A stretch of 61,077 nucleotides of DNA from an uncultured Candidatus Saccharibacteria bacterium (GTDB lineage: Bacteria > Patescibacteriota > Minisyncoccia > Phycocordibacterales > UBA2100). The stretch is from assembly GCA_964534465.1 (NCBI GenBank), contig CAZHOB010000004.1:1-61077 (forward strand), in the 5' to 3' direction. The position numbers and the translations under genes are program-made. This document shows, piece by piece, positions 2 to 48,408 of the stretch; within the stretch, counting starts at the first letter, position 1; the number at the start of each line of letters is the position of its first letter. The notes beneath the pieces are model-generated. The model made no database searches, had not been told where the DNA came from, and was given only the letters and a program-made list of their open reading frames with translations.

Positions 2-151
2 GAAGGCGTGGAAATGGTCATGCCGGGCGACACTGTCACCTTCAAGGTGAAGCTCGTCGCCCCTATCGCCATGGAAGAGCAAGTGCGCTTCGCCATCCGT
101 GAAGGCGGCAAGACCGTCGGCGCAGGTGTGGTGACGAAAATCGTTGCTTAA
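2..151 (+). CDS. tuf: Elongation factor Tu, C-terminal fragment (gene continues off the left edge)
   Basis: Open frame from the window edge reads [49 protein letters not shown], a canonical EF-Tu domain-3 C-terminus. Stop TAA at 149-151. Confidence 0.93.
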
Positions 152-182
152 ATCTCCAACGTTCGAACAAAGGTTCGAAAAG

Positions 183-214
183 CAAAAGTCCGCCGACAGG
201 CGGACTTTTGCTTT
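183..214 (+). terminator. Rho-independent terminator after tuf
   Basis: Hairpin caaaagtccgcc-gaca-ggcggacttttg followed by a T-rich tail. Confidence 0.7.
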
Positions 215-276
215 GAATTGACACATATTATTTCGGGTTGTATTGTGCGGCAGGCAAACAGCTCTTGGAGAAACCT

Positions 277-381
277 ATGGAAATCGTGCTCGTCGTACTC
301 GGCGTCTGTCTCGGCGTAGCCCTCACGGTCTATGCCGCCAAGAAGGTCATCGACTGGCTCAACAAGGGCGGATGGTTCTAA
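277..381 (+). CDS. 34-aa single-TM small protein (below the ORF-track cutoff)
   Basis: ATG at 277 lies 7 nt after GGAG. Reads MEIVLVVLGVCLGVALTVYAAKKVIDWLNKGGWF*. Its stop overlaps the next start as TAATG (379-383). Confidence 0.45.
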   Translation: MEIVLVVLGVCLGVALTVYAAKKVIDWLNKGGWF

Positions 382-695
382 TGCCCGTGCCTACGAGAGA
401 AATGATCAGTGTTGGAGTGATCGTGACCATTGGTGCGGTTCTCCTCTTCGTCGGATTCGTGGCGGCCTTCGTATGGATAGAATTTCTCAGGCCGGTTGCA
501 AAGCCGTTCGTGCAGTCCGAATGGAAACCGGCTTACTGCGCAGCGTTTCTTTCTCGGGACAACGTGCCACTTGCAGTCTGCAACGACAGCTTTCATCCGG
601 TTTACGATGTCGTACCTGCAGGGTATGAGGGGATGCTCAGCGGTTGTGTCATCACGAATGGGCGAGTCAGAGGATGTCATCCTTCCAAGATGTAA
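381..695 (+). CDS. Membrane-anchored small Cys-containing protein, function unknown
   Basis: Internal ATG at 381 of ORF 243..695 (MPVPTREMISVGVIVTIGAVLLFVGFVAAFVW...), coupled to the upstream mini-ORF. Has one N-terminal TM helix and a hairpin follows at 701-723. Confidence 0.5.
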   Translation: MPVPTREMISVGVIVTIGAVLLFVGFVAAFVWIEFLRPVAKPFVQSEWKPAYCAAFLSRDNVPLAVCNDSFHPVYDVVPAGYEGMLSGCVITNGRVRGCHPSKM

Positions 696-700
696 ATTTT

Positions 701-723
701 AGGCCCCGGATATCCCGGGGCCT
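701..723 (+). terminator. GC hairpin (aggccccgg-atatc-ccggggcct)
   Basis: Perfect 9-bp stem immediately after the stop at 695. Confidence 0.5.
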
Positions 724-750
724 CTTCTATGCGTGAGCAAATGTCTACAG

Positions 751-850
751 GCGGGCAAGACCGTCGGCGCAGGAGTAGTAACGAAAATCGTCGCGTAATT
801 TTCGGAAAAAGTTCCGAATCGCAAAAGACCCCGAAAGGGTCTTTTGCTTT
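751..850 (+). repeat. Orphan copy of the tuf 3' end plus its 3'-UTR/terminator module (copy 2)
   Basis: ggcaagaccgtcggcgcagg is identical to 108-127. The remnant encodes [14 protein letters not shown], the same peptide as the tuf tail with synonymous changes. It is followed by a small hairpin and a terminator (aaaagaccc-cgaaa-gggtctttt, 823-845), as after tuf. Confidence 0.8.
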
Positions 851-888
851 ACAGCAGCTCGACTTAAGTTTGGCGCTGTAGTACAAAT

Positions 889-1110
889 GTGTCAGACATG
901 GAGGCAGAAATGATATCGAGAAAAATAGTCGGGCATTCGTGGGGCCCACTCGATCTTCGCGTTGACACGTATGAAATGCCCTTCGACCCTTACGGGTTAC
1001 CCAAGCTCATCATGGAACCGTTATCGCCCAAAGAGGCAGCGCAATTCGATAGGGCATGCAAGCAGCTCCGTATCGGAGTCGGCAATCACTCCAAAAAAAC
1101 AGTTGTATAG
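889..1110 (+). CDS. Hypothetical protein (73 aa)
   Basis: ORF followed by a clean terminator at 1126-1150. No recognisable motif. Confidence 0.4.
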   Translation: MSDMEAEMISRKIVGHSWGPLDLRVDTYEMPFDPYGLPKLIMEPLSPKEAAQFDRACKQLRIGVGNHSKKTVV

Positions 1111-1125
1111 GGTGTTCGTGCTTTC

Positions 1126-1150
1126 AAACCCCGCCAAAAGGCGGGGTTTT
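1126..1150 (+). terminator. Rho-independent terminator
   Basis: aaaccccgcc-aaaa-ggcggggttt followed by T residues. Confidence 0.65.
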
Positions 1151-1186
1151 GCTATACTGCGCCCTTATTCTAGACAGAACGATCAT

Positions 1187-1522
1187 ATGAAAAAGTTCTT
1201 GGTGTTGTACAGGATGGACATGGATGCGATGAGGAAGATGATGGAGACGTCGAGCGCTGAGGATAGGAAGAAGGGAATGGCAGAGTGGGGCATGTGGATG
1301 AAGAAGAATGCGGCGAGCTTTGCCGATATGGGTGGCCCGACGGGCAAGAACACGGAGATAAGCCCGAGCGGCGCCGTGCAAAAGAGCAACGACATCGGCG
1401 GCTACTCGATAGTGCAGGCCGAGAGCTTGGAGGCCGCGAGCGCTATGCTCAAAGACAGCCCGCACCTCCAGATGCCCGGAGCCGTCGTCGACCTAGCCGA
1501 AATCGTCGCGATGGGCGCATAA
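1187..1522 (+). CDS. Hypothetical small cytoplasmic protein (111 aa)
   Basis: Internal ATG at 1187 of ORF 962..1522 (MKKFLVLYRMDMDAMRKMMETSSAEDRKKGMAEW...), downstream of the terminator at 1126-1150. Its last codons and 3' flank reuse the tuf-tail module. Confidence 0.6.
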   Translation: MKKFLVLYRMDMDAMRKMMETSSAEDRKKGMAEWGMWMKKNAASFADMGGPTGKNTEISPSGAVQKSNDIGGYSIVQAESLEAASAMLKDSPHLQMPGAVVDLAEIVAMGA

Positions 1523-1575
1523 TTTTCCGAAAAAGTTCCGAATCGCAAAACCCTGCCAGGTGGTGGGGTTTTGAC
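1499..1575 (+). repeat. Third copy of the tuf-tail/3'-UTR module
   Basis: gaaatcgtcgcg ... taattttccgaaaaagttccgaatcgcaaaa matches 786-828 with one mismatch after the stop. A terminator-like hairpin follows (aaaaccc...ggggtttt). Confidence 0.75.
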
Positions 1576-1665
1576 GTCCGTTCCTATTCATGTAGAATCC
1601 CCCTACTGTTATCCACCCAGCGCTTCATATTAGTTTCGAATCAACTAGTACAATAATGAAACACC

Positions 1666-1869
1666 ATGCATAGGGACGCTTTTTTTAGATTTTTTGCAAA
1701 TTTACCCATTCCTGTTAGACGAGAAGTCATTCTCGACTTGGGGGAAAAGGGTCCGATTACGTGGGAGGTCGCATATAGAGAGATAAAGGCTGATACGGAG
1801 TTGGGCAAAGAAATCCTTGCTAAACTTATTGAACTGGGCTTTATTCCTCTTGAGGAGGGCGAAAAATAA
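1666..1869 (+). CDS. Hypothetical small protein (67 aa), first gene of a low-GC cassette
   Basis: ORF in an AT-rich segment. Its stop lies 1 nt before the next start. Confidence 0.5.
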   Translation: MHRDAFFRFFANLPIPVRREVILDLGEKGPITWEVAYREIKADTELGKEILAKLIELGFIPLEEGEK

Positions 1870-8659: not shown

Positions 8660-9868
8660 ATGCGTGTACTTGCAGCTTTGTTCGCTGTGGTCTTGGCGGG
8701 CTCGGCTTTCGCCGAAAGCCCATGCAGTAATGTAGACTTTGAACTCTCGGAGCAGTGCGTAGCAAGCTACGGTGTGGCGGGACAATTGGCCACCTTCAAA
8801 GAGAGGGTGGTCGAGGCGCAGCGGCTGTACGGCACTCGTTACGAGGTGCGCGTCCATGCCTTCGGCAGCACGTCATACAGCAAATTCAACGGCACAACGG
8901 ACGATGTTTTCTCGTATGTCGCCACTGATGAGAATCTGTTGCCGGAGGCGCTCGACATCTATGTGAAATGGACGTTCCTCGCGCAGCAGCCGGAGGTGCT
9001 CTTCGAGCATGCGGCGCGGCACGAAGTGGCGCACATGATGAACGGCGACGTGCCCGGGTATCGGCCCAACGGCGCGAGCACCGAGGCGGCCGCCGAGCAC
9101 CGCGTGCTTGAGCTTGTTGGAGAAGCGCACTATCGCGAATACCTTCGCGCGTATCGCGAATATCAGCCCACGCAGGTGAAGGACATCGAAGCGTTCGTGC
9201 ATGTGGTCAGAGCCGCGACGCCAAAGGTCGAGGAGCGCATCGATGATGCCGACAGAAAGGCCGCGGAATATTTCCGTACGCTGACCGATGGCAAAGAGCA
9301 TCTCTTGATCTACGACGGAGCCGAGCTCCACGATGTTACTCGGGTCTCCGACGCTATAGGAGTGCAAGACTTCAACGTCCGCGCGTTCGACGACATGGTC
9401 GCACGGTCGACCTCGATAGTCATATTCCACAATCATCCATTGTCAGACGTCGCGAAGATGTACCCTTCGCCCATCGACTTCGGCGGTGTGCCGGCATTTC
9501 TTTTCGACGCGTTCACGGTGAACCCGAACATTCGCGTGGAATTCCGTCTGATACAGATCGGGAGCGGCGCGTCCATCGAGTACGGTCTGCGCTCGCAGCA
9601 AGTGCAGAAGTTCAAAGAGATGGCGCTCGCGATGAAAGCCGATCCATCCAAAGAAGAAAAAATCTTGGATGAACTCGGATTGCGCAGATTTGGCGTGAGG
9701 ATGGACAGTCTCTATAGTTATATCGCGTATGCAGCCGTGCCCGAGCGGGATGTCGGGCGTGTTCACGAGACGCAGATCTACGAAGGTCTCACCGTGCATC
9801 CCAAGTACTTCATCCGCTCGAATGAAAATTACTTCCTGCGGTACCGCGGAAGTATTCAAGCCCCGTAG
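8660..9868 (+). CDS. Secreted two-module protein: HExxH metalloprotease-like N-half and JAB/MPN (JAMM)-like C-half
   Basis: AGGAG SD and signal peptide MRVLAALFAVVLAGSAFA. Motifs HEVAHMMNGD and IFHNHPLSDVAKMYPSPID (H-x-H ... S-x-x-D). Terminator at 9898-9928. Confidence 0.6.
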   Translation: MRVLAALFAVVLAGSAFAESPCSNVDFELSEQCVASYGVAGQLATFKERVVEAQRLYGTRYEVRVHAFGSTSYSKFNGTTDDVFSYVATDENLLPEALDIYVKWTFLAQQPEVLFEHAARHEVAHMMNGDVPGYRPNGASTEAAAEHRVLELVGEAHYREYLRAYREYQPTQVKDIEAFVHVVRAATPKVEERIDDADRKAAEYFRTLTDGKEHLLIYDGAELHDVTRVSDAIGVQDFNVRAFDDMVARSTSIVIFHNHPLSDVAKMYPSPIDFGGVPAFLFDAFTVNPNIRVEFRLIQIGSGASIEYGLRSQQVQKFKEMALAMKADPSKEEKILDELGLRRFGVRMDSLYSYIAYAAVPERDVGRVHETQIYEGLTVHPKYFIRSNENYFLRYRGSIQAP

Positions 9869-11348: not shown

Positions 11349-11756
11349 ATGACAGCAGAAGCAGCAGCCAAGAAACCGCGCGCTACGCGCGCTCCCGCCA
11401 AGAAGGCGGACACTTCCGCTGCGCCCGCTCCTCGCTCCAAGAAGTCCGACACGCACCGCCTGCGCATTCGCGTGCGTGCTTACGAGCACGGCGTACTCGA
11501 CCTTTCCGTCAAGCAAATAATCGATACTGCCGCTCGCTACAACGCCGAAGTTGTCGGCCCCGTGCCGCTCCCTATCGATATCAAGAAATACACCGTCAAT
11601 CGCGCCGCCTTTATAGACAAAGACTCTCGCGAACAGTTCGAAATGCGCATCCACAAACGCATGATAGACATCCTCAACCCCGCACCCAAGGTCATCGAAG
11701 CGCTCACTAATATCGACCTTCCATCGGGTGTGAGCATTGATGTCAAAATGATGTAA
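11349..11756 (+). CDS. rpsJ: 30S ribosomal protein S10 with a ~34-aa Ala/Lys/Pro-rich N-terminal extension
   Basis: HRLRIRVRAYEHGVLDLSVKQIIDTAARYNAEVVGPVPLPIDIKKYTVNRAAFIDKDSREQFEMRIHKRMIDI...LPSGVSIDVKMM*. Confidence 0.93.
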   Translation: MTAEAAAKKPRATRAPAKKADTSAAPAPRSKKSDTHRLRIRVRAYEHGVLDLSVKQIIDTAARYNAEVVGPVPLPIDIKKYTVNRAAFIDKDSREQFEMRIHKRMIDILNPAPKVIEALTNIDLPSGVSIDVKMM

Positions 11757-11763
11757 TCCGGCG

Positions 11764-11783
11764 CCTGCCTGCCGGCAGGCAGG
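11764..11783. repeat. Perfect 20-nt palindrome CCTGCCTGCCGGCAGGCAGG (family copy 1)
   Basis: Read directly from the sequence. The same core recurs at 57376-57399 (24-nt perfect) and, imperfectly, at 40187-40222. Confidence 0.85.
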
Positions 11784-11809
11784 TCTCCATCGACGTGAAG
11801 ATGATGTAA
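11783..11809 (+). repeat. Orphan duplicate of the rpsJ 3' end
   Basis: gtctccatcgacgtgaagatgatgtaa encodes VSIDVKMM*, identical in peptide to the real rpsJ tail (11730-11756) but with synonymous differences. Confidence 0.8.
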
Positions 11810-14521: not shown

Positions 14522-16189
14522 CTAGACGAGTTCGCGCGTCGAAAGATGCGTGAGTATACGTGCCGCGGCAGCTTCTGCCGAAGTCTCCGTCGTGTCTATA
14601 CGTATGTCGGGATCCTCGGGTGCCTCGTACGCATCATCAACGCCGGTAAAATCTTTGAGGTTGCCGCTGCGCGCCTTCTTGTAGAGACCCTTTGGATCAC
14701 GTTTTTCGCAGATGGACAGCGGTGTATCGATGAACACTTCGATATAGGTGCCGTTGGCAGCGATAAGCCGGCGATTTTTTGCGCGAGCGTGCGCGTAAGG
14801 GGCTATGGCGGCACACAGGGCAATACCTCCGTGTTTGGCTATTTCTCCGGCAACGAAACCGATGCGCTCTATATTGATATTGCGGTCTTCTTTGCTAAAA
14901 CCGAGCCCGCGCGAGAGGTTATTTCGCACGACGTCCCCGTCCAAAAGAGTAACGGAACGATGCGAGCACTCGAGCAGGGCATGGTAGAGCCTCAGAGCGA
15001 TGGTCGATTTGCCTGCGCCCGAATAGCCGGTAAAAAATACTACGGTGCCGCGCAGTTTTTCTTTTGCCATTGCGCGCCGGAGCTCTTCCACGACCTCGGG
15101 AAATGAGAACCACGCAGGTATTTCTTTTCCGGCGCGGAGCATTGCGCGGAACTGCGTCCCCGAAATACGGGAAGGCGTGCGATCCCCAAGCTCATCGAGG
15201 CACATGTACTTTTGCTCAGCCTCGACGTACACCAACTCCTCGGTGGGCAGTATCTTGATGCTGAGTGCGCGCTCGTGCTGCAGTGCCGCTGCTTGCGCAG
15301 CGTATGGTCCGTAAAATGGCGCACCATTTTTACCGGCCGCTCCCGCGTGGTCGCGTCCGACGATAAAATGTGTGGCGCCGTAATTTTTTCTGATCAGCGC
15401 ATGCCAGATGGCCTCACGGGGCCCTGCCATGCGCATCGCGATAGGGAGGAGTGCGAGCAATGCATGGTCTTTGAAATATGTCCCTGCGAGGCGTTTGTAA
15501 CTGCGCACGCGCGTTACGTAGTCGATGTCGCCTTCTTTGGTCGGTCCTGTGACCGGATGTACGAGGGCTTTTCCACCCACCTTTTTGAGAGCGCGCATGA
15601 TTATCTCGTAGTGCGCGCGATGGATGGGATTACGCGTTTGGAACGCGACAACGATATCCCACCCCCTCTTTTGAAATTCTTTTTTGAGCTCGTTCGGCCT
15701 GAACCTCAAGTCCTTGAAATCATGTGCGGGTGAATAGCGAATGAGTTCTACGGGCCCGCCAAGATACAAATTGCCGGTGTCCTCCATGAGATAGCGCACG
15801 CCGGGATGCTCAAGGCTTTCTGTGCCATACACAAGGCGCGCTTCACGCGATTTGTCCGGCTGGTAAATGCTCAAAATGGTAAAGAACGCTATCGGGTCGC
15901 CGTAGATGTCGCACAGTATGACTTTCTCATCGAGCATGGGAGCGGAAGCGCTCTGCGTGTCGAGTACGATAGGTATCGGGAAGAGCGTACCGTCGGAAAG
16001 TCGAGAGTGCAGGACGACGGAGTCGTAGTCTTTTTCATTCAGAAATCCGGACAATGGCGCAAATCCGCCGCACAGTATCTGCTCGAGATCGAGCCGTTGC
16101 CGCTCAGTCAGCGTAATGCGTCGCAGCTCCGGAAGCGGGGCGGTGCCTACGGAAAACGCGAGCGCGGAACGTTCCATACGTGGATTCAT
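14522..16189 (-). CDS. Bifunctional sulfate adenylyltransferase / adenylylsulfate kinase (PAPS synthase-type fusion)
   Basis: ATP-sulfurylase motifs QTRNPIHRAHYEI, HPVTGPTKEGDIDY and VGRDHAG. The C-terminal APS-kinase P-loop reads FFTGYSGAGKSTIA. Confidence 0.88.
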   Translation of the reverse strand: MNPRMERSALAFSVGTAPLPELRRITLTERQRLDLEQILCGGFAPLSGFLNEKDYDSVVLHSRLSDGTLFPIPIVLDTQSASAPMLDEKVILCDIYGDPIAFFTILSIYQPDKSREARLVYGTESLEHPGVRYLMEDTGNLYLGGPVELIRYSPAHDFKDLRFRPNELKKEFQKRGWDIVVAFQTRNPIHRAHYEIIMRALKKVGGKALVHPVTGPTKEGDIDYVTRVRSYKRLAGTYFKDHALLALLPIAMRMAGPREAIWHALIRKNYGATHFIVGRDHAGAAGKNGAPFYGPYAAQAAALQHERALSIKILPTEELVYVEAEQKYMCLDELGDRTPSRISGTQFRAMLRAGKEIPAWFSFPEVVEELRRAMAKEKLRGTVVFFTGYSGAGKSTIALRLYHALLECSHRSVTLLDGDVVRNNLSRGLGFSKEDRNINIERIGFVAGEIAKHGGIALCAAIAPYAHARAKNRRLIAANGTYIEVFIDTPLSICEKRDPKGLYKKARSGNLKDFTGVDDAYEAPEDPDIRIDTTETSAEAAAARILTHLSTRELV

Positions 16190-26586: not shown

Positions 26587-27978
26587 TCAATAATGATAGA
26601 CATTTTGCGCGGGATAGCCGATGATCGGTGCATTCGGGGGAAGTCGTATCCACTCGTTATGTCTGAACGGCTGATAATCGACGTTGCAGATATCAGGCAC
26701 GTCGACGATCCGATAGAAAGGACCCCCGTTGATCGAATGATCAAACGTCATTGAAATGGTCGGCATCGCGCTGGAGCACGTCTCATGTAGCTGAGCCCAC
26801 CATTCGTACGGGTCGCACCGGTTCCACGCGGTACCCGATTCATAACGGAGCACCTGCTGCGACGTGCCCTTGCCGAGCGTCGTTGTTTTTTGCAGGACGA
26901 GACAATAGAAACTATTGCATTTTGTGCCGGCCAGTTTTTCAAAATCGCCGCTCGCGCTCCTCTCAAAAAGGTACTGCTTGGTAACGGTTGCGATGCATTG
27001 GTGATTGGCCTCGAACATGAACATGCCGAAGCGGTTGCCTTCGAGCGTGAGATATCTGTCGGTCGGTATGATGAATCCGAGCAACTGAAAGAGGAGGATA
27101 AGGGCGATAATGCACCACCCCGCGATGGACTTTTTATCAAATGGCGGCCGCTGGTAGCGATACATCGGCCCGAACAAAATGGCGATCGGCGGAAGCGCTA
27201 TCGACGGATAATCATAGAAGACGAAAATGCCGGAGTAGAGATGGAAATAGAGAGCGAATACAAGAGACATCCGCTGCAAAAGCCAATTACGCGAGAGCAG
27301 GAACCACGCTTCGACTATTTGTACGAAAATAACGATGTTGGTCGAAATGGGAATGAACCAGTCGGGAAAAAGAGGTATGCCGGTCTTCATGGAAGAGAAA
27401 TACGTCCCCTCTATCCATGCGGGAGAAAGCTTGACCGTGACAGACACGAAATAGAGAAGGACAAAAACGAGCTTGAGGAAGTACTCCTTGTGCGGGATAA
27501 AAAGGAGCGTCGCCGTGAGGAAGATGTGATAGTAATCATACGGTCCCGCAATAATATAACTGAGGACAAAAATGACGAAGATCTTCCACACAAGGAGCAA
27601 TGCGAGCAGCATGTGCGCATAGGCCCATTGTTTTTTCCACATGAAATATACGATCAGCATCATGAGACCAAAGAGCAGCATGTAGAACTCCGATTGCGTG
27701 AAGCCGTCGGGAAGCACATGGAAAAAATAGAGATCGCCGCAATTCTTGAAATATGGCCAGCACACCGCCGCGCCGCGCCGCGCCGTTTCCACGGTAATAA
27801 GTGTTTTTCCTATCCATACGGAGAAGGTCACGTAGAAGTAAAAGAGCATTGCCCCGAACATCCACTGCAAAATGACCTGCGACTCGATCTCCTCAATGCT
27901 GAAAAGTTTTCTGTATGCTTCCGTGAACGAACGCCAGTAGTTTTTTATTTTCGTACCGACTTCGGACATCATTTGCAT
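26587..27978 (-). CDS. Polytopic membrane protein (~8-10 TM) with a Cys-containing C-terminal soluble domain (HTTM/SdpB-like?)
   Basis: Hydrophobic repeats run through residues ~30-300, and the C-terminal ~150 aa carry 6 Cys. Overlaps the SagB gene by 10 nt. The family assignment is a guess. Confidence 0.6.
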   Translation of the reverse strand: MQMMSEVGTKIKNYWRSFTEAYRKLFSIEEIESQVILQWMFGAMLFYFYVTFSVWIGKTLITVETARRGAAVCWPYFKNCGDLYFFHVLPDGFTQSEFYMLLFGLMMLIVYFMWKKQWAYAHMLLALLLVWKIFVIFVLSYIIAGPYDYYHIFLTATLLFIPHKEYFLKLVFVLLYFVSVTVKLSPAWIEGTYFSSMKTGIPLFPDWFIPISTNIVIFVQIVEAWFLLSRNWLLQRMSLVFALYFHLYSGIFVFYDYPSIALPPIAILFGPMYRYQRPPFDKKSIAGWCIIALILLFQLLGFIIPTDRYLTLEGNRFGMFMFEANHQCIATVTKQYLFERSASGDFEKLAGTKCNSFYCLVLQKTTTLGKGTSQQVLRYESGTAWNRCDPYEWWAQLHETCSSAMPTISMTFDHSINGGPFYRIVDVPDICNVDYQPFRHNEWIRLPPNAPIIGYPAQNVYHY

Positions 27979-28679
27979 ACCGTTATTGTATGAACAGTCT
28001 GTTCCTGTTCCTCGTTTAAATCAAGGAGTTGCGCAACGAGAGCATCATTGAAGCCCGCGTACGGCCGCACCTTGAGCGAGAGTACGCACCCCACGAGCAA
28101 AATATTCTCGCTCATGTGACCCGCCTCGAGGAGGGCATGCAGGTACGCAAGATCGCCGTATTTGGCCGACGAGCGTTGCCATACGCTCGTGAACACAATA
28201 ATGGATGACAGCGGAAGTTCTTCGGGGTGTTTTGCGATGTCTTTCATGGTGATATCGCGCGGAAGGTCCCAGAGCCGCTCGAGCGCATGCTTACTGGGGT
28301 TGTAGTGGTAGGCCGCCGGCGTCTGACCCTCGATCGCGGTCGATATCAGGTAAGTTTCCACAGGATAGAGAGCTCCACCCGAGGGGTAGTTCCTCCGATG
28401 AGAGTCGGGATGTTTTCGAAGCGAGAGACCGAGAAGTGTACCGAGTTCTTGGAGAAGCAGGGGTGTGTCAGGATTTCCTTCGAGCGCCGAATGCCTTTGC
28501 ACGAGAGCGTCTTGCAATCTGGTCGCGAGTTGCTCGGGCTCTGGAAGAGAGATCTGTCCCATGCGCTTGTATGCTTTGTGTGTTCCCCGTGGCACCTCTT
28601 CAGGTCGATGCGTCGCCCCGCGACGCGTCAGTCGCGCTCTGCGAAGTTCCGCATGTATATGTGAGAGAAAAGGATTCAT
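27969..28679 (-). CDS. SagB-type (nitroreductase-fold, FMN) dehydrogenase
   Basis: Hallmark RNYPSGGALYPVETYL. C-terminal LLEAGHMSENILL ... RPYAGFND. The start overlaps the YcaO stop (ATGA at 28676-28679). Confidence 0.82.
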   Translation of the reverse strand: MNPFLSHIHAELRRARLTRRGATHRPEEVPRGTHKAYKRMGQISLPEPEQLATRLQDALVQRHSALEGNPDTPLLLQELGTLLGLSLRKHPDSHRRNYPSGGALYPVETYLISTAIEGQTPAAYHYNPSKHALERLWDLPRDITMKDIAKHPEELPLSSIIVFTSVWQRSSAKYGDLAYLHALLEAGHMSENILLVGCVLSLKVRPYAGFNDALVAQLLDLNEEQEQTVHTITVCK

Positions 28680-30190
28680 GAGAAAGGATGAGGGGTCGCG
28701 ACGTGCGGTTCCTTGAGGGGCTGATAGCCGAATGCAAGCGGTACTTCTTTGAGCCGTGTGCCGCCAAAGAGACGCAACTGCTCAATTAGATAGGGGGGGT
28801 GGAGCTGCGGTATCACGACCATTTCTATGTGCCACGGCGTTACGTTCTTTTTAGAACCCGAGAGGGATACGGAGATGCAATCGTACGATCTATCCGAGCA
28901 CCATTTCAGGACGCGCTCCAACTGTTGTTCTATGGTATCTCCATCCCACGGTTTCTCTGATACCCCTATTTCTTTTCCCTCCAGTAGTGAGCGCAATTTT
29001 TCGGCATTTTCAGGTTTGCCCCAATAGTATAGTCTGTCGCGATGCCCGATCTCTTCTACGGGCGTGTCATTCCATGAATTTCCCGCATCTTCCCACACAC
29101 GATACCCGCGGCGGGCTCGAAGAGCCTCCGTCAGAGCCTTTTGGACGGCATAGTTAATTGAACGATGTGCTTTGAGACCGATGGTAAAGAGTGGCGCATG
29201 CCCGCTCGTATCTTCAAGGATGACGGCAACTGCATGGGTCGGCGCGTCGGTAATGAGCTGGATCACATGAGGACGAAGTCGATATTGTGTGCACAGTGCT
29301 ACCGCGCGCGCGAGAGCGTCGTCTTCTGTACAGAGGGGGACAAGGGAAATTCGCGGCAGCTTCAATTGATTGAGCCACCAGACCATGTAGGCCTCACGCT
29401 CGATCACTTCGAGGGCGCCGGCAAGGCGCGCACCGGAAAGCGTCGGCCATGTAGCGAGACCGATGGTGGTTTGCTGACGTATCTGCGGCTCGTCGTATCC
29501 GTACTTTTGGTTGAGGCGGACACCGATAGCGGTTTGCGCGGGAATATACACGTCGACGTCGCTCGTGAGTGATCTCCCCTGTATCCATAGATATCGGGCG
29601 TCCTCGCGGAGCGTGCGCTTCGGATTCTGCGCGCGCTGTTCTTCGGAAAAACCGACGAAGTCGCGCGGCGAGATGTATGGACCGTATTTTGCTATTTCAT
29701 TTTCAGTAACACGCTGCGGTCGCATAAAATAATCCTCTTGCGAAAACCATAAGAACCGCTCAACTCCTTCGGCAAGCGTGGCCAAGAGCGCGTCCTCATC
29801 AGAGTGCCATGTGGTGCCGCCTACCTGGTGTTTGGAGGGAACGTTGCACAGCGCATACCAAGATCTGGTCGGCGGCTCATCCTCCATCGATGCCGACCGG
29901 CCATATTGCGTGAGCACGCCCGCTTCCTTGAGGCGTTCGGCAAGCGCGAGAGGGTCCGCAAGGTCGGGCCGCTCAAAAGGCACCGCTCGTGTGTCCCTAT
30001 AAAAATGACCATTTGTTTTCTGCTCGAGCATACCGATGAGCGCACGGAGTGCTCTGTTCTTGATGTCGTCACCCTGCAAAGCATCGTACAAAGGATAGCC
30101 ATCCACGATCATGGTCGCATGATAGCAGCGCAGTTCCGACAGGGTAGTTGTCAAAACTGTCGGGGAAGGTTGTAAAAGTTTTCCCAGCAT
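28676..30190 (-). CDS. YcaO-domain ATP-dependent (cyclo)dehydratase
   Basis: LATLAEGVERFLW, TTIGLATWPTLSGARLAGALEVIEREAYMVWW, IGHRDRLYYW, and the typical Pro-rich C-terminal tail ...HVATPHPFS. Confidence 0.85.
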   Translation of the reverse strand: MLGKLLQPSPTVLTTTLSELRCYHATMIVDGYPLYDALQGDDIKNRALRALIGMLEQKTNGHFYRDTRAVPFERPDLADPLALAERLKEAGVLTQYGRSASMEDEPPTRSWYALCNVPSKHQVGGTTWHSDEDALLATLAEGVERFLWFSQEDYFMRPQRVTENEIAKYGPYISPRDFVGFSEEQRAQNPKRTLREDARYLWIQGRSLTSDVDVYIPAQTAIGVRLNQKYGYDEPQIRQQTTIGLATWPTLSGARLAGALEVIEREAYMVWWLNQLKLPRISLVPLCTEDDALARAVALCTQYRLRPHVIQLITDAPTHAVAVILEDTSGHAPLFTIGLKAHRSINYAVQKALTEALRARRGYRVWEDAGNSWNDTPVEEIGHRDRLYYWGKPENAEKLRSLLEGKEIGVSEKPWDGDTIEQQLERVLKWCSDRSYDCISVSLSGSKKNVTPWHIEMVVIPQLHPPYLIEQLRLFGGTRLKEVPLAFGYQPLKEPHVATPHPFS

Positions 30191-32474: not shown

Positions 32475-32534
32475 GACATATTCACAGTGTGCGTCCGCTC
32501 GAGTGTTATTGCACGATACAATGAAATGCACTGT

Positions 32535-35500
32535 ATGGGTCTGCGCAAAAGAAGCCGCGGAATTTTTGGCGCTGTTTCGTGGAAAATACGCGCGCTCCTC
32601 TTTCTTGCTCTCATTGCCATTGGCTTATCGCTTCATGACACGAGGGCGGGATTCCATTCTTCTGAGCTAAGGTTCACTGACGCGTCGCACGGCGGTCTCG
32701 CTATCGTACCCGCATCGTGTCCCTCGCTTCCGCACTGGGCGGGAGATTGCACTTCCTCGGCAACAGCCGCGGAGGGAACGAACACCTCCGGCTTGGCCTA
32801 TGCAAGCGCGCCCGGCGCTGTCGGTGCGCCGCCCGCCCCGACCTACACGATCACCGGTGTCGGTGGCGTCATCGGCGCAGGCGGTACGTGTCAGGTCGGG
32901 AGTTCCAATACCATCGCAGCCATTTCCGCCTCCTCCGCGTCCACGCAGGGACTACTCGGCAATTACTTTTCCGGGTCCGGTTTTACGCCGTGGTATTCGG
33001 TGTACGTCGACCCACAAGTCAACTTCAATCCCTCGTGGCCGCTTGCAACGAGAGCGAATGTCACCGGGAATGCCTACTCGGCGATATGGAGTGGTTACGT
33101 CAAGGTCGACTATACGGGTACCTACACGTTCTATGTGACCAACTCCAGTGGCGCGCGGTTGGACGTGAACGACGTAAGGATAATCGACGACCTCTCGCCT
33201 GGTCATGCAGCGGTCGAAGATTCCGGGCGCATCGATCTCGTCGCGGGGAAGTGGTACAAGATAGTTCTGCTCTATAACAACAGCGCTATCAATAGTTCGG
33301 GCGCGATAACACTCAGCTATAGTGGCGGCGTCGTTCGCACCGTCTACCTCACCTCCGGTACGAGCTGGACCGTGCCGAGTGATTGGAGTAATGCCCACAG
33401 CTCCATCGAAGTGATAGGCGGTGGTGGTGGTGGTGCATACGGTCTCTATCGTGCGAGCGGCGGAGCGGGTGGTTATTCCGCGTCGTACGCAGACCAGTAC
33501 GCGATCTCTGGTTCTGGAGTGCCTCCACTCTCACCGGGTCAGGTCATTAATTATTCCGTCGGCTCCGCAGGTGCCGGCGGCACCTCCACCAATGTCTTGG
33601 GAGGCGACGGCGGCGATACATGGTTTGATTCCACTAGCATTCTTTTGGCCAAAGGAGGAACGGCCCCAACCAATGCCTATGGTCTAGGTGTCCAATGGAA
33701 TGGCGGCACAGGAGGTCAGGTATATCCCTATGGGGGAGTGGGGCAAGTTCAGTACGCCGGTGGCAGTGGAGGCACGTATTGTTGCGGGACTCCCACCTCG
33801 GGCTTCGGTGGCGGTGGAGCTGGCGGCCCCGGGGGCAACGGTAAAAGCGCACCCGCAGACTTCAGTGGCGGACATGCCGAGAACATTGCCGTTTCCGGTG
33901 GTGCCGGTGGCGCAGCGGGTACGAGCGCCGCCCCAAATGGTGGAGCTGGCGGCAATGGCATTGATTGGGGCTCGACACACGGTTCTGGCGGAGGCGGTGG
34001 CAGCGGGTATGGAGACGGCTCCACGTTGGGTGGTAACGGAGGCAACGCCGGTAGTTATGGCGGTGCCGGCGGTGGCGGCGGGTATGGAGGAAGCAGTCAC
34101 ATTGGCTTGGGCGGTGCCGGTGCACAGGGTCTCATCGTTATTACGTACCCTATTCCAGGACAGTCGATGGCCAAGCAGCTCATTCCTGCCGATCACTTGA
34201 GCCTCACGGGCGGGGAGCCGGTGTATTATATCGTCGATTGGGGCGACGGTTCGCCCATACAAGCAATCCCGACACCGGGCGCTGCGGTCGCAGGAGATGT
34301 TTTCTCGCAAACGACTTTCAAACAGACAACAAACCTTTTGTCAGGATGGCAGGGGCGTACCTACGATGATTCCTCTTGGACAAGGTCTTTTGGCCAGGAA
34401 GGGGACTGCGGCGTTACATTTGGATGTACCAACGGATTTGCGGGCACCAACGTTTTCTGGATATGGTCGTCCAATACCTTGCTAACCCCAGATACCACCA
34501 ATAATCCTTATTTCCGAAAGGGCTTCATCCCTGCCTCCTCGAGCGGCACGCTCACGATACGTTCAGCCGGAAACTACACAGCGTACGTCAACGGCACATT
34601 GGTCGGGTCTGCGACGGGCCCTGCCGGTCCGAATTCTAATGCATATCCTGTTACTCTTTTGCCGGGTACGGTCAACGTGCTGGCCGTGAACGCTACCCAC
34701 GCGGGGACCGGAGTAGACGGCTGGATAGGCAAACTCTCTACGATGTTCAATTCACCGGTCTTTGTAATGCCTGATACGACCGCGACTTCGACCCACACCT
34801 ATGCGACTGCCGGTTCCAAAATAGTGCGCGTGGCCACGGTTGGCCGATCTTCGCTCCAATCCGCATGGCAGTCGTTCTCAATGACGTGCAGCGCACCTGC
34901 GACGCCGCAGCCCAATCCTCCGTCATCCATAACTATCGGTGGCGCAAGCTCGTGTACTTCGGGCACCTCCACCACCATTAGTTTGAGCGCGAGTACTGAA
35001 ACGGGACTGGGCGGACTCTTCTACAGCGGCACGGCGTTCAATACATATAAGAGCCGCTCGCTCGATGCCACGATCAATTTCCCCGATGCCACAAATATCG
35101 GCACGGTGCGCACCGGCGCCTCGACCGGCTGGTCGGCCAAGTGGTTTGGATATGTGAAAGCAGACGTAACCGGTGTGTACACGTTCTACGTATCCTCCGA
35201 CGACGGCGCACGGCTCTACGTCAACGGCAACACGGTAGTAAATAGCTGGATAGACCAAGCGTACACCGAGCACTCGGGTACCATTTCACTCACGGCAGGC
35301 AATTGGTACCCGATAGAGCTCGACTACTACCAAAATATCAGCACATCGGGCATCGCGCTCAGCTACAGCGCCTCGGGCGTCACGAAGCAAATAATTCCGG
35401 CGACCAATTTGCGCGCCTCGGGCGTATCGTACGCGGTCAACTGGGGCGATGGCACCGCGGTGCAGACCGTGCCAGCTTCCGGCTTCACTAATCCGATGAT

Positions 35501-36911
35501 CGCGTACAACGTCTCGCACACGTACGCCGCAGCTGGCACATCCACCATCTCCGTGACGGCCACCAATCAGACCAACCAGACATCCACGGCGACCACGAAG
35601 CAGATGGTGTGCTCGACAGCCACGTGCGCCAACGGTCTCAATATCAATACGTATCCGAGTTGCACATGTCCTGCAGCGCAAACGCAAAGCGGCAGCACCT
35701 GCGGCTGCGCCAACGGCCTCAATGCCACCACGTATCCGACATGCGCTTGTCCCGCCGGCCAGACCCAAAGCGGCAGCTCGTGCATCACTCCCGTCACGGT
35801 GCAGCCGAATGCGCCCACGGTGACTCTCGGTGGCGGCGCTTCGTGCACACAGGGCTCACCGGTCAGTGTCGACATGCGCGCCTCGAGCGATGCGGGATTG
35901 GCGGGTGATTTCTACACCGGCACCGCGTACAACACATTTAAGGGCCGCGCACTCGATGCCATCATCAACTTCACGGACGCGACCGCCATCGGTACCAACC
36001 GCACCGGCGCTTCGACCGTGTGGTCTGCGAAATGGTACGGCTATGTGCGCGCTGATTTCAATGAGACGTACACATTCCAAACGGTGAGCGACGACGGCGT
36101 ACGCTTGACCGTCAACGGCGTCCAGATCATCAACAATTGGACGGATCACGCCGCGACCACGAATTCAGGCACCATCGCGCTTACCGCCGGCAACTGGTAT
36201 CCGGTGCAGCTCGAGTTCTACCAAAACACCGCCACCTCGGAGATCACGCTCAGCAACGGCTCGCCGAGTCTCCCGATGCAGATAATTCCTTCGGGCAATT
36301 TGAAGGCTTCGGGCGTGTATTACTCCATCAATTGGGGCGATGGCACGGTGCAGACATATCCGACTTCCGGATTCATTTTCCCGAGCGCTACGACGACGGT
36401 CGCACACACGTATGCTTCTGCCGGCAACCAGACCGTCTCGGTGACGGCGACAAATCAGAGCGCGCAGACGGGAGCCGCCACAGCCAAGGTGCTCACGTGC
36501 GCCGCCTCCTGTACGCCCGCATATTACTGCTCGGGAAGCCAGCTCATGCATACCGACGCCAGCTGCGGGAATACATTGGTCCAGAACTGCACATATGGCT
36601 GCGGAAATGGCGCGTGCAATCCGGCTCCTACTCCCTCCATCGTCTCCTTCAACGTGACGCCGTACCTCGTAACGCAGGGTAATACCGCGACCGTGCAGTG
36701 GTCGACCACCAACACGACTTCATGCACCGTCTCATCGCCCAACGGTGATTCGTGGTCAGGTACTTCGGGCTCCGCGACCACGCGCGCCATCACTGGCCAG
36801 ACCTCGTACACCATCACCTGCAACGGCCTCGACGGCTCCGTCATCACACAAACCATTCAGGTGAATGTCGTGCCGACCTTCTGCGAAGTGGGCGTGCAGA
36901 ACTGTCCGTAA
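32535..36911 (+). CDS. Giant secreted/surface protein with 3 PA14-like modules, a Gly-rich block, a galactose-binding-like beta-sandwich, Cys-rich mini-repeats and a C-terminal Ig-like domain
   Basis: Signal anchor MGLRKRSRGIFGAVSWKIRALLFLALIAIGLSL. PA14-type blocks read GLLGNYFSG...YTGTYTFYVTNSSGARLDVND, GLGGLFYSG...VTGVYTFYVSSDDGARLYVNGN and GLAGDFYTG...ETYTFQTVSDDGVRLTVNG. GGxGG tracts span ~33415-34130. Confidence 0.8.
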   Translation: MGLRKRSRGIFGAVSWKIRALLFLALIAIGLSLHDTRAGFHSSELRFTDASHGGLAIVPASCPSLPHWAGDCTSSATAAEGTNTSGLAYASAPGAVGAPPAPTYTITGVGGVIGAGGTCQVGSSNTIAAISASSASTQGLLGNYFSGSGFTPWYSVYVDPQVNFNPSWPLATRANVTGNAYSAIWSGYVKVDYTGTYTFYVTNSSGARLDVNDVRIIDDLSPGHAAVEDSGRIDLVAGKWYKIVLLYNNSAINSSGAITLSYSGGVVRTVYLTSGTSWTVPSDWSNAHSSIEVIGGGGGGAYGLYRASGGAGGYSASYADQYAISGSGVPPLSPGQVINYSVGSAGAGGTSTNVLGGDGGDTWFDSTSILLAKGGTAPTNAYGLGVQWNGGTGGQVYPYGGVGQVQYAGGSGGTYCCGTPTSGFGGGGAGGPGGNGKSAPADFSGGHAENIAVSGGAGGAAGTSAAPNGGAGGNGIDWGSTHGSGGGGGSGYGDGSTLGGNGGNAGSYGGAGGGGGYGGSSHIGLGGAGAQGLIVITYPIPGQSMAKQLIPADHLSLTGGEPVYYIVDWGDGSPIQAIPTPGAAVAGDVFSQTTFKQTTNLLSGWQGRTYDDSSWTRSFGQEGDCGVTFGCTNGFAGTNVFWIWSSNTLLTPDTTNNPYFRKGFIPASSSGTLTIRSAGNYTAYVNGTLVGSATGPAGPNSNAYPVTLLPGTVNVLAVNATHAGTGVDGWIGKLSTMFNSPVFVMPDTTATSTHTYATAGSKIVRVATVGRSSLQSAWQSFSMTCSAPATPQPNPPSSITIGGASSCTSGTSTTISLSASTETGLGGLFYSGTAFNTYKSRSLDATINFPDATNIGTVRTGASTGWSAKWFGYVKADVTGVYTFYVSSDDGARLYVNGNTVVNSWIDQAYTEHSGTISLTAGNWYPIELDYYQNISTSGIALSYSASGVTKQIIPATNLRASGVSYAVNWGDGTAVQTVPASGFTNPMIAYNVSHTYAAAGTSTISVTATNQTNQTSTATTKQMVCSTATCANGLNINTYPSCTCPAAQTQSGSTCGCANGLNATTYPTCACPAGQTQSGSSCITPVTVQPNAPTVTLGGGASCTQGSPVSVDMRASSDAGLAGDFYTGTAYNTFKGRALDAIINFTDATAIGTNRTGASTVWSAKWYGYVRADFNETYTFQTVSDDGVRLTVNGVQIINNWTDHAATTNSGTIALTAGNWYPVQLEFYQNTATSEITLSNGSPSLPMQIIPSGNLKASGVYYSINWGDGTVQTYPTSGFIFPSATTTVAHTYASAGNQTVSVTATNQSAQTGAATAKVLTCAASCTPAYYCSGSQLMHTDASCGNTLVQNCTYGCGNGACNPAPTPSIVSFNVTPYLVTQGNTATVQWSTTNTTSCTVSSPNGDSWSGTSGSATTRAITGQTSYTITCNGLDGSVITQTIQVNVVPTFCEVGVQNCP

Positions 36912-40873: not shown

Positions 40874-42691
40874 ATGTTCGTACTTCCCGCCAAGATCTGG
40901 CGCAGGGCCGGCGAGACATTCGCCGCGCTGAAAGAGGTATTCAAACTTATCGCTTCGATAGACCGAAAGCTCATGTGGTATCAGTGGGGAGCCGCTTTCG
41001 GGAGCGCGCTCGTCACCATGGGCTCGTTCCTCGCAGCGGGGTATCTCATGTCGTACATGAGCGGCCTCGTCATCACGCCGCTCATACTCGTGTTGTTCAT
41101 CGTATACAACATGATGCCGGTCGTTCACGCGCTGAGCTTGGGAAATTATCGCGAATACCGTCAGCATATATTCAATCGCAGCATTTGGGTCACGATCGAT
41201 CAGTGGCGTTTGAAGAAACATCTGAGCCTCGACATTGCGAAGCTCGTATCGCCCGAATTCCTGAAAGCTAAAGTGATGGTCGACCGGCGCGGGCACTCCG
41301 CTCCTGTCACGATGTGGCAACAGGCGATATTACTCGCACGCTCCGCAGTCCAGCTCATCGTCGGAAGTATCGCGCTTTTCATGACGGTGCCCGCGCTTAT
41401 GGCGCTTGTCGTCGCACCGGTCCTCGTCGCCATCGTCATGCGGTGGCGCTCACAGGCTTTCGCCCGTGACGTGGAGGAAAAGGAACTCGTCACGCGGTGG
41501 CAGCAGGGCCACACGCTTTGGGAACTCACGAATCATCAGTACGGCTTCCAAATGCGTCTCATGGGCCTGCGAAAATTGCTCGAAGAGCGCTATCATAGCT
41601 TCACGGAAGAATTGCTTGCCAACAACAAGCGCGTCGCGATGTACAACGTGAAGGGCAATACGATCGTATATGCGCTGAATTTCGTGTGTCTCGGCATCTT
41701 CTGGGCGTTCTTCTCGAAGGGCATGCTCGCCAATGTGTACACGTTCACACAGATAGGAGCCATCGTCGGCGGGTATCATCTCGTGTACAACGCGATGCGT
41801 GATTTCGGCTTTGCTATTGCACAGCTCGATCATACGGCTGTGGATTTCGGCTACCTGCAGACATTCCTTGGGATGAAACCCATTCTCAAAGAGGAAAAGG
41901 CCAAGGCGATAGAGTTGGAGCATACGCCCAAGATAGAGATCAAAGACGTCTTTTTCCGCTACCCGAAACTCGAAGACGATGACCATGAGCGGCCGCTGGT
42001 TTTGAAAGGCGCATCCCTCACCATCGAGGCGGGGGATAAGATAGCCTTCGTCGGACTCAATGGCTCCGGCAAAACGACTCTCTGTCAGCTCTTGGCCAAT
42101 GTGTATCATCCGACCGACGGCCATATCCTGATCGACGGGAAACCGCTTTCGCTCATCAAACAAGATTCGTGGCACGAACACGTCTTCTATCTCCAGCAAA
42201 ACCCGCGCATCCCCGAACTCCTCTTGGAGCAGGCGATGACGGGCGACCAGCCGGGAGAAGTGGATGTGCCGCGTTTGCAGAAGGCTCTCAAGTACGCCTT
42301 TGCCGACAATCTCGTGGACGGTCTCGAAGAAAAATTGAAGACGTGGCTCGGACGGCAGTGGCCCGGCGGAAGAGATTTTTCCACCGGTCAGTACCAGCGC
42401 CTCTGCATCACGCTCGTCTTCTACCGACTGCTCCATCCGAAAACGCGGATAGCGATATTCGACGAGCCGATGGCGAATTGCGATTATGAGACGCGCGACA
42501 GGTTTTATCCGGCAGTGACGGGTTCGCCCGATTTTGCCGACAAGACCATCATCACGATCTCTCACGACAAAGAGTACCTGCGCCTCTTCCCACGCATTGT
42601 GGACTTCGAGGACGGCAAGGTGCGCCGCGACATGAAAGATCAGGCGACACGGCAAGGTTCGGAGCCGATACCATTTCGGCCCAAATCATAA
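40874..42691 (+). CDS. ABC exporter, fused permease and ATPase (MsbA/bacteriocin-exporter architecture without a peptidase domain)
   Basis: AGGAG SD. N-terminal ~330 aa carry TM helices. Walker A GLNGSGKTT, signature FSTGQYQRL, Walker B IAIFDEP. Confidence 0.85.
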   Translation: MFVLPAKIWRRAGETFAALKEVFKLIASIDRKLMWYQWGAAFGSALVTMGSFLAAGYLMSYMSGLVITPLILVLFIVYNMMPVVHALSLGNYREYRQHIFNRSIWVTIDQWRLKKHLSLDIAKLVSPEFLKAKVMVDRRGHSAPVTMWQQAILLARSAVQLIVGSIALFMTVPALMALVVAPVLVAIVMRWRSQAFARDVEEKELVTRWQQGHTLWELTNHQYGFQMRLMGLRKLLEERYHSFTEELLANNKRVAMYNVKGNTIVYALNFVCLGIFWAFFSKGMLANVYTFTQIGAIVGGYHLVYNAMRDFGFAIAQLDHTAVDFGYLQTFLGMKPILKEEKAKAIELEHTPKIEIKDVFFRYPKLEDDDHERPLVLKGASLTIEAGDKIAFVGLNGSGKTTLCQLLANVYHPTDGHILIDGKPLSLIKQDSWHEHVFYLQQNPRIPELLLEQAMTGDQPGEVDVPRLQKALKYAFADNLVDGLEEKLKTWLGRQWPGGRDFSTGQYQRLCITLVFYRLLHPKTRIAIFDEPMANCDYETRDRFYPAVTGSPDFADKTIITISHDKEYLRLFPRIVDFEDGKVRRDMKDQATRQGSEPIPFRPKS

Positions 42692-47586: not shown

Positions 47587-47853
47587 ATGAAACCCGCGGT
47601 CTTCGTAGTTCTCGGACTTCTTTGCTTCTCGTTACTCGTCATCGGCGGCTTGGTGATTGGCGCAAGAGGCATGGCTTCGACGCCTTGCCAGATCAAGGAC
47701 TTTGGCGCCGGCGTGTACAAGTTTGCTTGCACCGGCGACAAATTCGATGCGGCGCTCGCGAAGTGGCGTGGACTTGACGAGAATGTATTCGCAGTTATCG
47801 AGCACGTTGTGCTCGACCAGCGAGGCGGCTGGCTCGTCATCGTTCGATACTGA
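47587..47853 (+). CDS. Small membrane-anchored C-x(n)-C protein, family member 2 of 4
   Basis: AGGAG SD, with promoter-like TTGCAA-16 nt-TACTAT upstream. TM helix, then PCQIKDFGAGVYKFACTGDKFDAALA...GGWLVIVRY. Terminator at 47862-47896. Confidence 0.65.
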   Translation: MKPAVFVVLGLLCFSLLVIGGLVIGARGMASTPCQIKDFGAGVYKFACTGDKFDAALAKWRGLDENVFAVIEHVVLDQRGGWLVIVRY

Positions 47854-48200: not shown

Positions 48201-48408
48201 GTTCCTCAAATCAAAAGCCCCGTGAATCTCTCGGGGCTTCGTTTTATGTCGGTCTCAAGTTCGAGCGCGCCTACGATAGGCGATCACCTTGCGTTCTTCA
48301 GCTTTTGACAATCGTCGCGATATATTCAACCATGCCCGCTCGACCGGTCGAAAAGAAAGAACGACCGCTGCGAGATTATACTGCAATTAGTAGACACTGG
48401 AGGTCATC

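Follow-up and report, generated by a model that had tools for sequence, protein, structure and literature searches.

The end of tuf and its repeats in the window

The DNA analysed here (the window) is an entire contig of 61,077 nt that starts inside tuf (EF-Tu), 150 nt before the end of the gene; our subject is this gene end and its 3' untranslated region (3'UTR), which recur in nested copies within the first 1.6 kb. The part of tuf that is present (2-151) comprises the last 49 codons and TAA, and shows 94-75% identity to EF-Tu C-termini of Patescibacteria, nearest to Kaiserbacteria and other Paceibacteria; judged by this tail, the host is a Patescibacteria/Kaiserbacteria-like bacterium of the Candidate Phyla Radiation (CPR). 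All features described in this section lie on the forward strand.

Copy A, the working tuf tail (107-151), encodes a 14-residue tail peptide and is followed by its 3'UTR (152-214), with a small hairpin at 163-178 (loop AAAG) and a terminator at 179-214 (-35.1 kcal/mol, z = -7.6). Copy B is a displaced tuf tail (751-798) outside any long open reading frame (ORF); it starts about 48 nt before its own stop codon, and its 3'UTR (796-850) consists of the stop codon, a hairpin at 801-818 (TTCGGAA AAAG TTCCGAA), and a terminator at 821-847 (-25.5 kcal/mol, z = -6.4). Copy C (1520-1576) is a tuf-type 3'UTR without a tuf tail, with stop codon, hairpin at 1525-1542 (one mismatch), and terminator at 1544-1576. 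A 6-7 bp hairpin with AAAG loop, then a strong terminator, is common to all three.

The first-pass annotation, made from the letters of the window, had the tuf tail recurring at 751-850 with a 20-nt identical core and the same encoded peptide, and formal alignment upholds this. Positions 107-156 and 754-803 are 86% identical over 50 nt, with the exact 20-nt core GGCAAGACCGTCGGCGCAGG, which occurs in the window at 107 and 754 only (shuffled sequence leads one to expect 0); in BLASTN the similarity persists, at 76% over 103-214 and 749-850, through the hairpin to the terminator end. The peptide of copy B is (A) plus the same 14 residues, and all codons that differ from copy A (5 of 5) are synonymous. 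Recurrence of the post-stop module at 1520-1550 is borne out as well: 30 of 31 bases are identical to 796-826, and an exact 22-mer inside the module is found in the window at 805 and 1529 only. Neither the A/B nor the B/C repeat has a further occurrence in the 61 kb; the hairpin motif and the terminator type of 1126/1548 are confined to this 1.6-kb stretch within the window, the terminator of copy C being of the same type as that at 1126-1149 (two in the window). In GTDB genomes and JGI metagenomes the 22-nt module has 0 exact matches; it is private to this lineage. Elsewhere, copy B is best matched by the tuf tail of the related locus L081 (92%; loci of relatives are given by such L numbers).

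Inserted unit 1 (215-750) holds a promoter-like TTGACA-17-TATTGT (218-246), an ORF of 34 aa (277-381), an ORF of 104 aa with an N-terminal hydrophobic stretch (381-695), and a terminator (701-723). Inserted unit 2 (851-1125) holds a 70-aa ORF (898-1110, called as 66 aa). Homologues of the 104-aa and 70-aa cargo proteins were sought for donor or pre-insertion arrangements, and both proteins are ORFans: each matches itself only among 5.8e9 proteins, and the former has three weak relatives among 1.84e9 representatives. Next come a terminator (1126-1149) and a TATACT -10 box (1153-1158) upstream of a YCII-like gene of 111 aa (1187-1522); the segment 1126-1158 is orthologous to the tuf terminator and YCII promoter of relatives without inserted DNA (L082, L086), and 1126-1494 as a whole aligns with L082 9939-10308. 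The match of this gene to Pfam YCII is weak (E = 0.0018, 19.1 bits against a gathering cut-off of 24 bits). The earlier description of the DNA between the copies as self-contained mini-cassettes, each a gene plus its terminator, fits unit 1, with its promoter-like site, two ORFs, and terminator; it does not fit the gene at 1187-1522, which is no mobile cassette, since it is a conserved neighbour of tuf in this clade.

Copy C had also been described as joined to the final codons (EIVA) of the gene at 1187-1522. This part did not stand: AEIVAMGA is the native C-terminus of the YCII-like protein and is conserved in its widespread family (308 homologues found; P0004, for instance, ends in DLAEIVAMGA), and homology with the tuf region begins at about the stop codon (1516/1520). 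Copy C is therefore not fused to tuf codons, and the likeness of EIVA is coincidental. A B/C junction at AAATCGTCGCG, which is common to the YCII-like gene and the tuf tail, was considered and rejected because the YCII-like gene retains ATGGGCGCA after it.

Right after copy C, a promoter-like TTGACG-16-TAGAAT (1571-1598) marks the start of a 9.8-kb island that extends up to rpsJ (11349). G+C falls to 44-49% over 1600-2900, where three ORFs (67, 72, and 206 aa) have no Pfam or PADLOC match; a PADLOC scan of the cargo and island ORFs gave no match.

The same gene ends in relatives

In most genomes of Patescibacteria/Paceibacteria, tuf is followed by rpsJ after 30-100 nt; in the clade nearest the window, the YCII-like gene is placed between the two. 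Comparison of the regions downstream of tuf in these relatives revealed the empty site. In L082, L086, L124, and L170-L174 the YCII-like gene follows tuf after 85-141 nt, made up of stop codon, small hairpin, terminator, and YCII promoter, and is itself followed by rpsJ. The same gap is filled with 0.5-2.9 kb in L009, L081, L087, L088, L089, L090, and L092, measures about 4.5 kb in L176, and contains a 202-aa gene in L169. Cargo at this one spot is unrelated between loci (toxin-antitoxin pairs of HigB-like, RelB, YafQ, and Gp49 type; Fic; a helix-turn-helix protein; ORFans), that of L176 including AIPR and an ISL3 transposase. At five of the filled sites (L009, L087, L089, L092, and L169) the tail is not duplicated. 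The boundary after tuf is an insertion hotspot with changing content in this clade, and the rpsJ and fusA boundaries are likewise. The central claim of the first-pass annotation, that DNA was inserted serially just behind tuf and that nested copies of the tail and 3'UTR record this, is supported by these sites, empty in some relatives and filled in different ways in others.

Displaced tuf tails also occur independently in four further lineages (L081, L088, L090, and the L176 group). L081 has two. L088 has one, which takes in 85 nt of coding sequence, and its two-hairpin UTR is duplicated on either side of a toxin-antitoxin pair; L176, L178, and L179 have the toxin-antitoxin insertion and the joint as in L088, with a decayed displaced tail (in-frame stop, indel). 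In L090 the single displaced tail lies 8 nt past the working stop codon.

Other genes are affected in the same way. In the window, the rpsJ stop codon (11754-11756) is followed on the forward strand by a scar at 11757-11809: TCCGGC, a perfect 20-nt palindrome (11764-11783, CCTGCCTGCCGGCAGGCAGG), and a displaced tail, VSIDVKMM* (11783-11809), which differs from the working tail at 6 of 6 degenerate codons. A homologous structure, with the same palindrome inside the displaced rpsJ tail, is present in L087 (13043-13109), and in L082 a displaced rpsJ tail lies 1.6 kb downstream of rpsJ, past two inserted genes. In L016 (4518-4643) a copy of the fusA tail VAADIIASRK*, recoded synonymously, lies 63 nt past the tail itself; the intervening sequence folds into a hairpin of which the right arm is old coding sequence and the left arm an inverted copy of the right, an arrangement that suggests an origin by template switching. 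In a more distant lineage (L105, 487-837), an ATP-dependent DNA ligase gene has a second copy of its tail, AATRAIDGTF*, about 290 nt further on, with synonymous changes only and just upstream of a YCII-like gene. Tail scars of rplC, rplB, rpsS, rplE, and rpsN were not found in the window. A general scan for tail scars gave 13 matches downstream against 8 in the upstream control, reciprocal matches counted; as this control is not clean, only cases inspected by eye are reported here.

Differences between the copies are of one kind. Over the four intact tuf pairs (window, L088, L090, and L081) 32 codons differ, of which 32 are synonymous and 0 non-synonymous (5, 5, 8, and 14 per pair; L081 counted by hand). 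In the rpsJ and fusA pairs almost all degenerate codons are different, including serine AGY against TCN, and the ligase pair shows an arginine codon-family switch, AGA against CGG. As the differences are all synonymous, with switches of codon family, the resident and displaced copies stem from alleles that were functional and diverged, and are not local duplicates in decay. The earlier suggestion that copy B comes from a diverged allele is supported accordingly by the A/B differences, all of them synonymous.

Which copy is native could be asked in three cases, L087 rpsJ, L090 tuf, and L088/L176 tuf. The body of L087 rpsJ is nearest to L125 (86%); its working tail is 67% identical to the tail of L125, its displaced tail 94%. 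In L090 tuf, third-codon-position G+C (GC3) is 0.62 for the body, 0.27 for the working tail, and 0.73 for the displaced tail. In these two, the displaced copy is native and the copy attached to the gene imported. Between L088 and L176 the tuf bodies are 96% and the working tails 76% identical, with the switch at about -45 (relative to the stop codon, as below); from this comparison, the gene-attached copy would again be imported and the distal copy the old native end. In a sliding-window comparison of L088 tuf for a mosaic breakpoint, L176 alone was close enough, with 300 nt of tuf.

Origin of the nested copies

We read the nested copies as recombination scars, left by serial additive recombination with diverged relatives that used a conserved gene as anchor and an illegitimate second joint; we give this reading a probability of roughly 0.55. 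On this best reading, the copies are not working att sites. Incoming DNA would pair inside the conserved gene, up to the point where homology ends, at the stop codon or at the terminator end of the 3'UTR, and the unrelated downstream DNA of the donor, a self-contained cassette, would be added. If the illegitimate second joint then fell a few tens of bases upstream of the homology end in the recipient, the stretch from the joint to the homology end would be doubled, and the recipient's own tail and UTR moved downstream of the cargo. The gene would stay intact because the copy attached to it is the imported one, and repeated rounds would give nested copies, the newest adjoining tuf. The molecular pathway is probably homology-facilitated illegitimate recombination after DNA uptake, as far as the products let us infer it.

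Applied to the window, an older state would have been tuf with tail B, the hairpin module, the terminator 1544-1576, the promoter 1571-1598, and the island. An earlier event would have added 827-1519 (terminator, 70-aa ORF, clade-type terminator and promoter, YCII-like gene) and doubled the 31-nt module, giving rise to copies B and C. A later event would have brought in unit 1 (215-750) together with tail A and its UTR, and moved tail B downstream, so that A is the newest import. This order is deduced from a rule supported in L087 and L090, by which the newest copy is the one closest to the gene. At the joints themselves, AGGCGG (B joint, 749-754) and GC(A/G)TAA (C joint, 1516-1522) are possible microhomologies, as read from the sequence.

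Several observations agree with this reading. Similarity between A and B ends exactly at the terminator end (214/850) and that between B and C at 826/1550, which fits a duplicated stretch that ends where homology between donor and recipient stops. The conserved anchor is present (tuf, rpsJ, or fusA), and within the clade the last 150 nt of tuf show 79-91% identity between alleles; the fraction of allele pairs with an exact block of 14 nt or more in common is 0.2-0.5 and drops to 0.04-0.09 in the last 45 nt, so that pairing would run out where the displaced tails begin. All copies are short, as expected if homologous recombination removes long repeats, and the five filled sites free of a scar are expected where the joint falls past the homology end. 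One of the two mechanisms offered in the first-pass annotation, capture by repeated homologous events anchored in the tuf tail, fits the data.

Other points weigh against it. The left end of the displaced tuf copy coincides with exact shared runs of 20 nt (window) and 26 nt (L081), the outcome expected of crossover at an att core, and runs of at least 20 nt are shared in just 3 of 55 random pairs of clade tails. Events in tuf cluster at -45 to -50 (the B boundary, an indel in L081, the L088/L176 switch), which hints at some site preference; homologous insertions of 32-40 nt in L088 and L090 also lie near -45 to -50. GC-rich palindromic insertions in displaced tails (rpsJ in the window and L087; tuf in L088 and L090) are left unexplained by the model. 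GC3 is 0.67 for both A and B, and composition therefore favours neither as native in the window. The tuf gene of L081 (7701-8910, a JGI contig) has at least three frameshifts, and this contig is either error-prone or carries a decaying copy or pseudogene. Natural competence and illegitimate recombination are assumed for these uncultivated bacteria; no competence genes were identified in the window.

The closest known process is C-terminal displacement in Rhs, contact-dependent inhibition (CDI), and type VI secretion system (T6SS) effector-immunity loci, proposed to occur via homology-facilitated illegitimate recombination (Kirchberger et al. 2017, PMC5361080; for the displacement see also Jackson et al. 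2009, as cited therein). In those loci, too, the upstream anchor is conserved, new DNA is placed beside it, and the old 3' end is kept downstream as an orphan; repetition leads to arrays with the newest copy nearest the gene, and a dedicated recombinase is not known. The anchors here differ in being the essential genes tuf, rpsJ, and fusA, with an unchanged protein tail, so the displaced piece is a synonymous one and not a new toxin tip; the cargo consists of unrelated accessory genes instead of toxin-immunity pairs, and, at 27-90 nt plus UTR, the displaced pieces are very short. Homology-facilitated illegitimate recombination itself is described from naturally transformable bacteria (de Vries and Wackernagel 2002; Prudhomme et al. 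2002; Meier and Wackernagel 2003; all as cited in PMC5361080) and from a case of conjugation in E. coli (PMC3240628); related short-patch events in Acinetobacter are reported in a preprint (bioRxiv 10.1101/2023.11.22.568220). It has in common with the present loci one homologous and one illegitimate end, foreign DNA beside the anchor, and variable junctions. In the experiments recipient DNA is usually deleted at the joint, whereas here the joint lies upstream of the homology end and results in a short duplication; those experiments come from other bacteria, and the CPR case is known here from sequences alone.

The other mechanism offered in the first-pass annotation, duplication of an att site by site-specific integration, is in our view unlikely. 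Small elements with a mimic of the tuf 3' end in attP would pile up in tandem with a recombinase encoded elsewhere, and copies A, B, and C would be attL, internal, and attR sites. There is a model for this in ICESt1, ICESt3, and the cis-mobilizable elements (CIMEs) at fda, where integrative elements that target the 3' end of a tRNA or protein gene restore that gene, and integrase-less remnants accrete in tandem. As in those integrative and conjugative elements (ICEs) and CIMEs, direct repeats of the 3' end flank the inserted DNA here, internal copies are nested after serial events, and the gene is intact. The exact cores and the clustering of tuf breakpoints near -45 to -50 named above speak for such integration, as do working tails whose third codon positions are atypical and richer in A+T, as mimics carried by an element might be, and a cargo typical of mobile DNA (toxin-antitoxin pairs, Fic). 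ICE and CIME att cores are, however, exact and made by an integrase. The absence of an integrase, already stated in the first-pass annotation, was confirmed: Pfam scans of the window ORFs gave no match to Phage_integrase, Resolvase, Recombinase, or rve, and none is annotated among the neighbours of about 25 related loci, where the precomputed Pfam assignments (L081, L082, L164-L186) contain, as sole recombinase, a DDE_Tnp_ISL3 transposase in L176, L178, and L179. Cores are often lacking: next to 20 nt in the window and 26 nt in L081, the longest exact run is 15 nt in L088 and 3-5 nt in the L090 pair, which encloses 8 nt only, and the rpsJ and fusA pairs have none in common. Left boundaries vary from -30 to -85 (tuf: -33, -48, -60, -60, and -85; rpsJ: -30, -48, and -57), units can be as small as 0-0.7 kb, cassette ends have no conserved sequence across the window, L081, and L088, and only in the pairs L088/L176 and L088/L090 are the flanks upstream of the displaced tails related. 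Copy A has the full two-hairpin tuf 3'UTR of the clade, and on that account looks like a genuine tuf locus and not a minimal attP. Phage or metagenomic elements that carry the tuf tail were also looked for: a scan of IMG/VR for DNA encoding the 14-residue tail peptide gave 0 matches, the tail being found on no viral contig, and BLAST matches in a phage collection were to tuf itself only. The missing integrase, variable ends, lack of an exact core in some pairs, 8-nt cargo of L090, and occupied sites free of any repeat leave att-site duplication unsupported.

Somewhat more doubtful is a Campbell-type exchange, in which a cassette would loop out between two tail copies as a circle with one tail, and re-integrate by a single crossover in the tail and UTR of another chromosome, so that the homologous stretch is doubled. 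Direct repeats of 100-170 nt (tail and UTR) do flank units of 0.5-0.7 kb in the window (A/B), L088, and L176, and the nearly identical B/C module flanks a unit of 724 nt. Small double-stranded circles would, however, have to move between diverged lineages; the repeats of L090 and the rpsJ tails of 27-33 nt are too short or mismatched for a homologous crossover, and duplicated tails with almost no cargo (L090 tuf, rpsJ in the window) are left unexplained.

We also think it improbable, to a slightly greater degree, that the scars are the product of a dedicated capture system without an integrase gene of its own, an integron-like platform on essential genes of CPR bacteria. Its units would carry a synonymously recoded tail, stop codon, and hairpin; an enzyme of the host, or one acting in trans, would place them at a preferred point some 45 nt ahead of the stop codon of the highly expressed fusA, tuf, and rpsJ; and the two-hairpin 3'UTR or the GC-rich palindromes would be the recombination signal. 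Like integron arrays, the present loci combine serial addition at a fixed point, by which older units are displaced, with small and diverse units that include toxin-antitoxin pairs. Unlike in integrons, neither intI nor attI is present: no tyrosine recombinase was found in the Pfam scans, and the fixed point is the end of tuf. The repeat is a gene tail plus terminator-type 3'UTR and not attC, and the units have their own promoters and terminators (promoter-like sites at 218-246 and 1571-1598, and intrinsic terminators) unlike attC-ended promoterless cassettes, a comparison made by features with no formal attC model run. A dif-like 11-6-11 dyad of the kind used by Xer modules (integrative mobile elements exploiting Xer, IMEX; pdif) is absent from the core by eye, with no profile search; the hairpin has 7-nt arms and a 4-nt spacer.

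Two last explanations are very improbable. A local tandem duplication at the tuf tail, with the copies diverging afterwards and genes being inserted between them later on, would account for direct repeats that lie close together, and are nearly adjacent in L090 and at rpsJ of the window, but is contradicted by the 32 synonymous against 0 non-synonymous codons with codon-family switches that drift in a non-functional copy could not produce, by the 94% identity of the displaced L087 rpsJ tail to the working tail of another lineage, and by cassette content that varies between relatives; decay is seen in the L176 group only. An assembly artefact, a chimeric join at the contig end via conserved tuf k-mers, has in its favour the start of the contig 150 nt from the tuf end and an A-to-unit 1 join (151-268) outside the cover of a second assembly, yet the longest exact A/B repeat (20 nt) is under usual assembly k-mer sizes, B and C with their flanks are reproduced exactly in that independent assembly (Logan contig L083, SRR8931233; 100% identity to window 268-1721), and the same architecture occurs in unrelated samples and assemblers (JGI, ENA, NCBI).

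Recombination with diverged relatives at a conserved anchor, the reading we prefer, is a process of known kind; to our knowledge, its application to essential translation genes or in CPR bacteria has apparently not been described before, and our literature search found no description of such displacement in either. CPR/Patescibacteria cannot be grown alone, so their gene exchange is known almost solely by inference. Read as scars, the copies would document additive recombination between diverged lineages directly and in datable form, with the incoming DNA, the order of events, and the end of pairing preserved. The str-S10 cluster, usually taken as a stable vertical marker, is in this clade a series of insertion hotspots, and tuf, rpsJ, and fusA can have 3' ends that are foreign mosaics, which bears on marker-gene phylogeny and binning. 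A short synonymous copy of a core-gene tail downstream of the gene would serve as a search key for recent acquisitions in metagenomes.

Translation gene order and other features of the window

The translation gene cluster of the window (str-S10-spc, 151-50006) is split five times: by 1.0 kb between tuf and the YCII-like gene; by the 9.8-kb island between the YCII-like gene and rpsJ; by 26 kb between rpsJ and rplC; by 3.2 kb between rplB and rpsS, with an ABC ATPase at 40874-42691; and by 2.9 kb between rplE and rpsN. L082 and L007 are among the relatives that have smaller gaps at some of the same points. Scanned with Rfam and for tRNA genes, the window gave no match, and hence neither a tRNA or tmRNA target nor a known RNA family.

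A palindrome, CCGCCAGCTGGCGG, is located just upstream of the fusA start in three Paceibacteria (L082, 5953-5966; L016, 2367-2380; L005), and may act as a conserved signal, regulatory or structural, in the str operon. It is found in L005 at 376-389 and 9773-9786, and twice around the displaced tuf tail of L088 (4829-4842 and 4904-4917). Upstream of tuf in L081, TPR and PQQ-propeller genes take the place of fusA.

The gap between rplE and rpsN encodes three paralogous small proteins (47588-47853, 47939-48200, and 48701-48937) with an N-terminal hydrophobic stretch and the motif C..(Y/T)(K/F)F.C; two of the genes are followed by near-identical terminators (48213-48244 and 48941-48972, 97%). The repeats 47693/48798 and 48213/48941 belong to these three small membrane-protein genes and their similar terminators, and are not scars of gene tails. 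Between the last inserted gene (end 49731) and the rpsN start (50006), about 200 nt within 49740-50005 have no assigned ORF and no Rfam match; this stretch may be a leader.

The block between rpsJ and rplC contains a YcaO cyclodehydratase beside a nitroreductase-family protein, and a fused ATP-sulfurylase/APS-kinase (27969-30190 and 14522-16189); the YcaO and nitroreductase-family pair is possibly a modified-peptide cluster. Many neighbouring ORFs of 300-450 aa in this block are without a Pfam match. A protein of 1474 aa with PA14 and PKD domains is encoded at 32487-36911; its gene contains internal DNA repeats (35019-35571 and 35910-36459, at 69%; 35625-35702 and 35706-35783).

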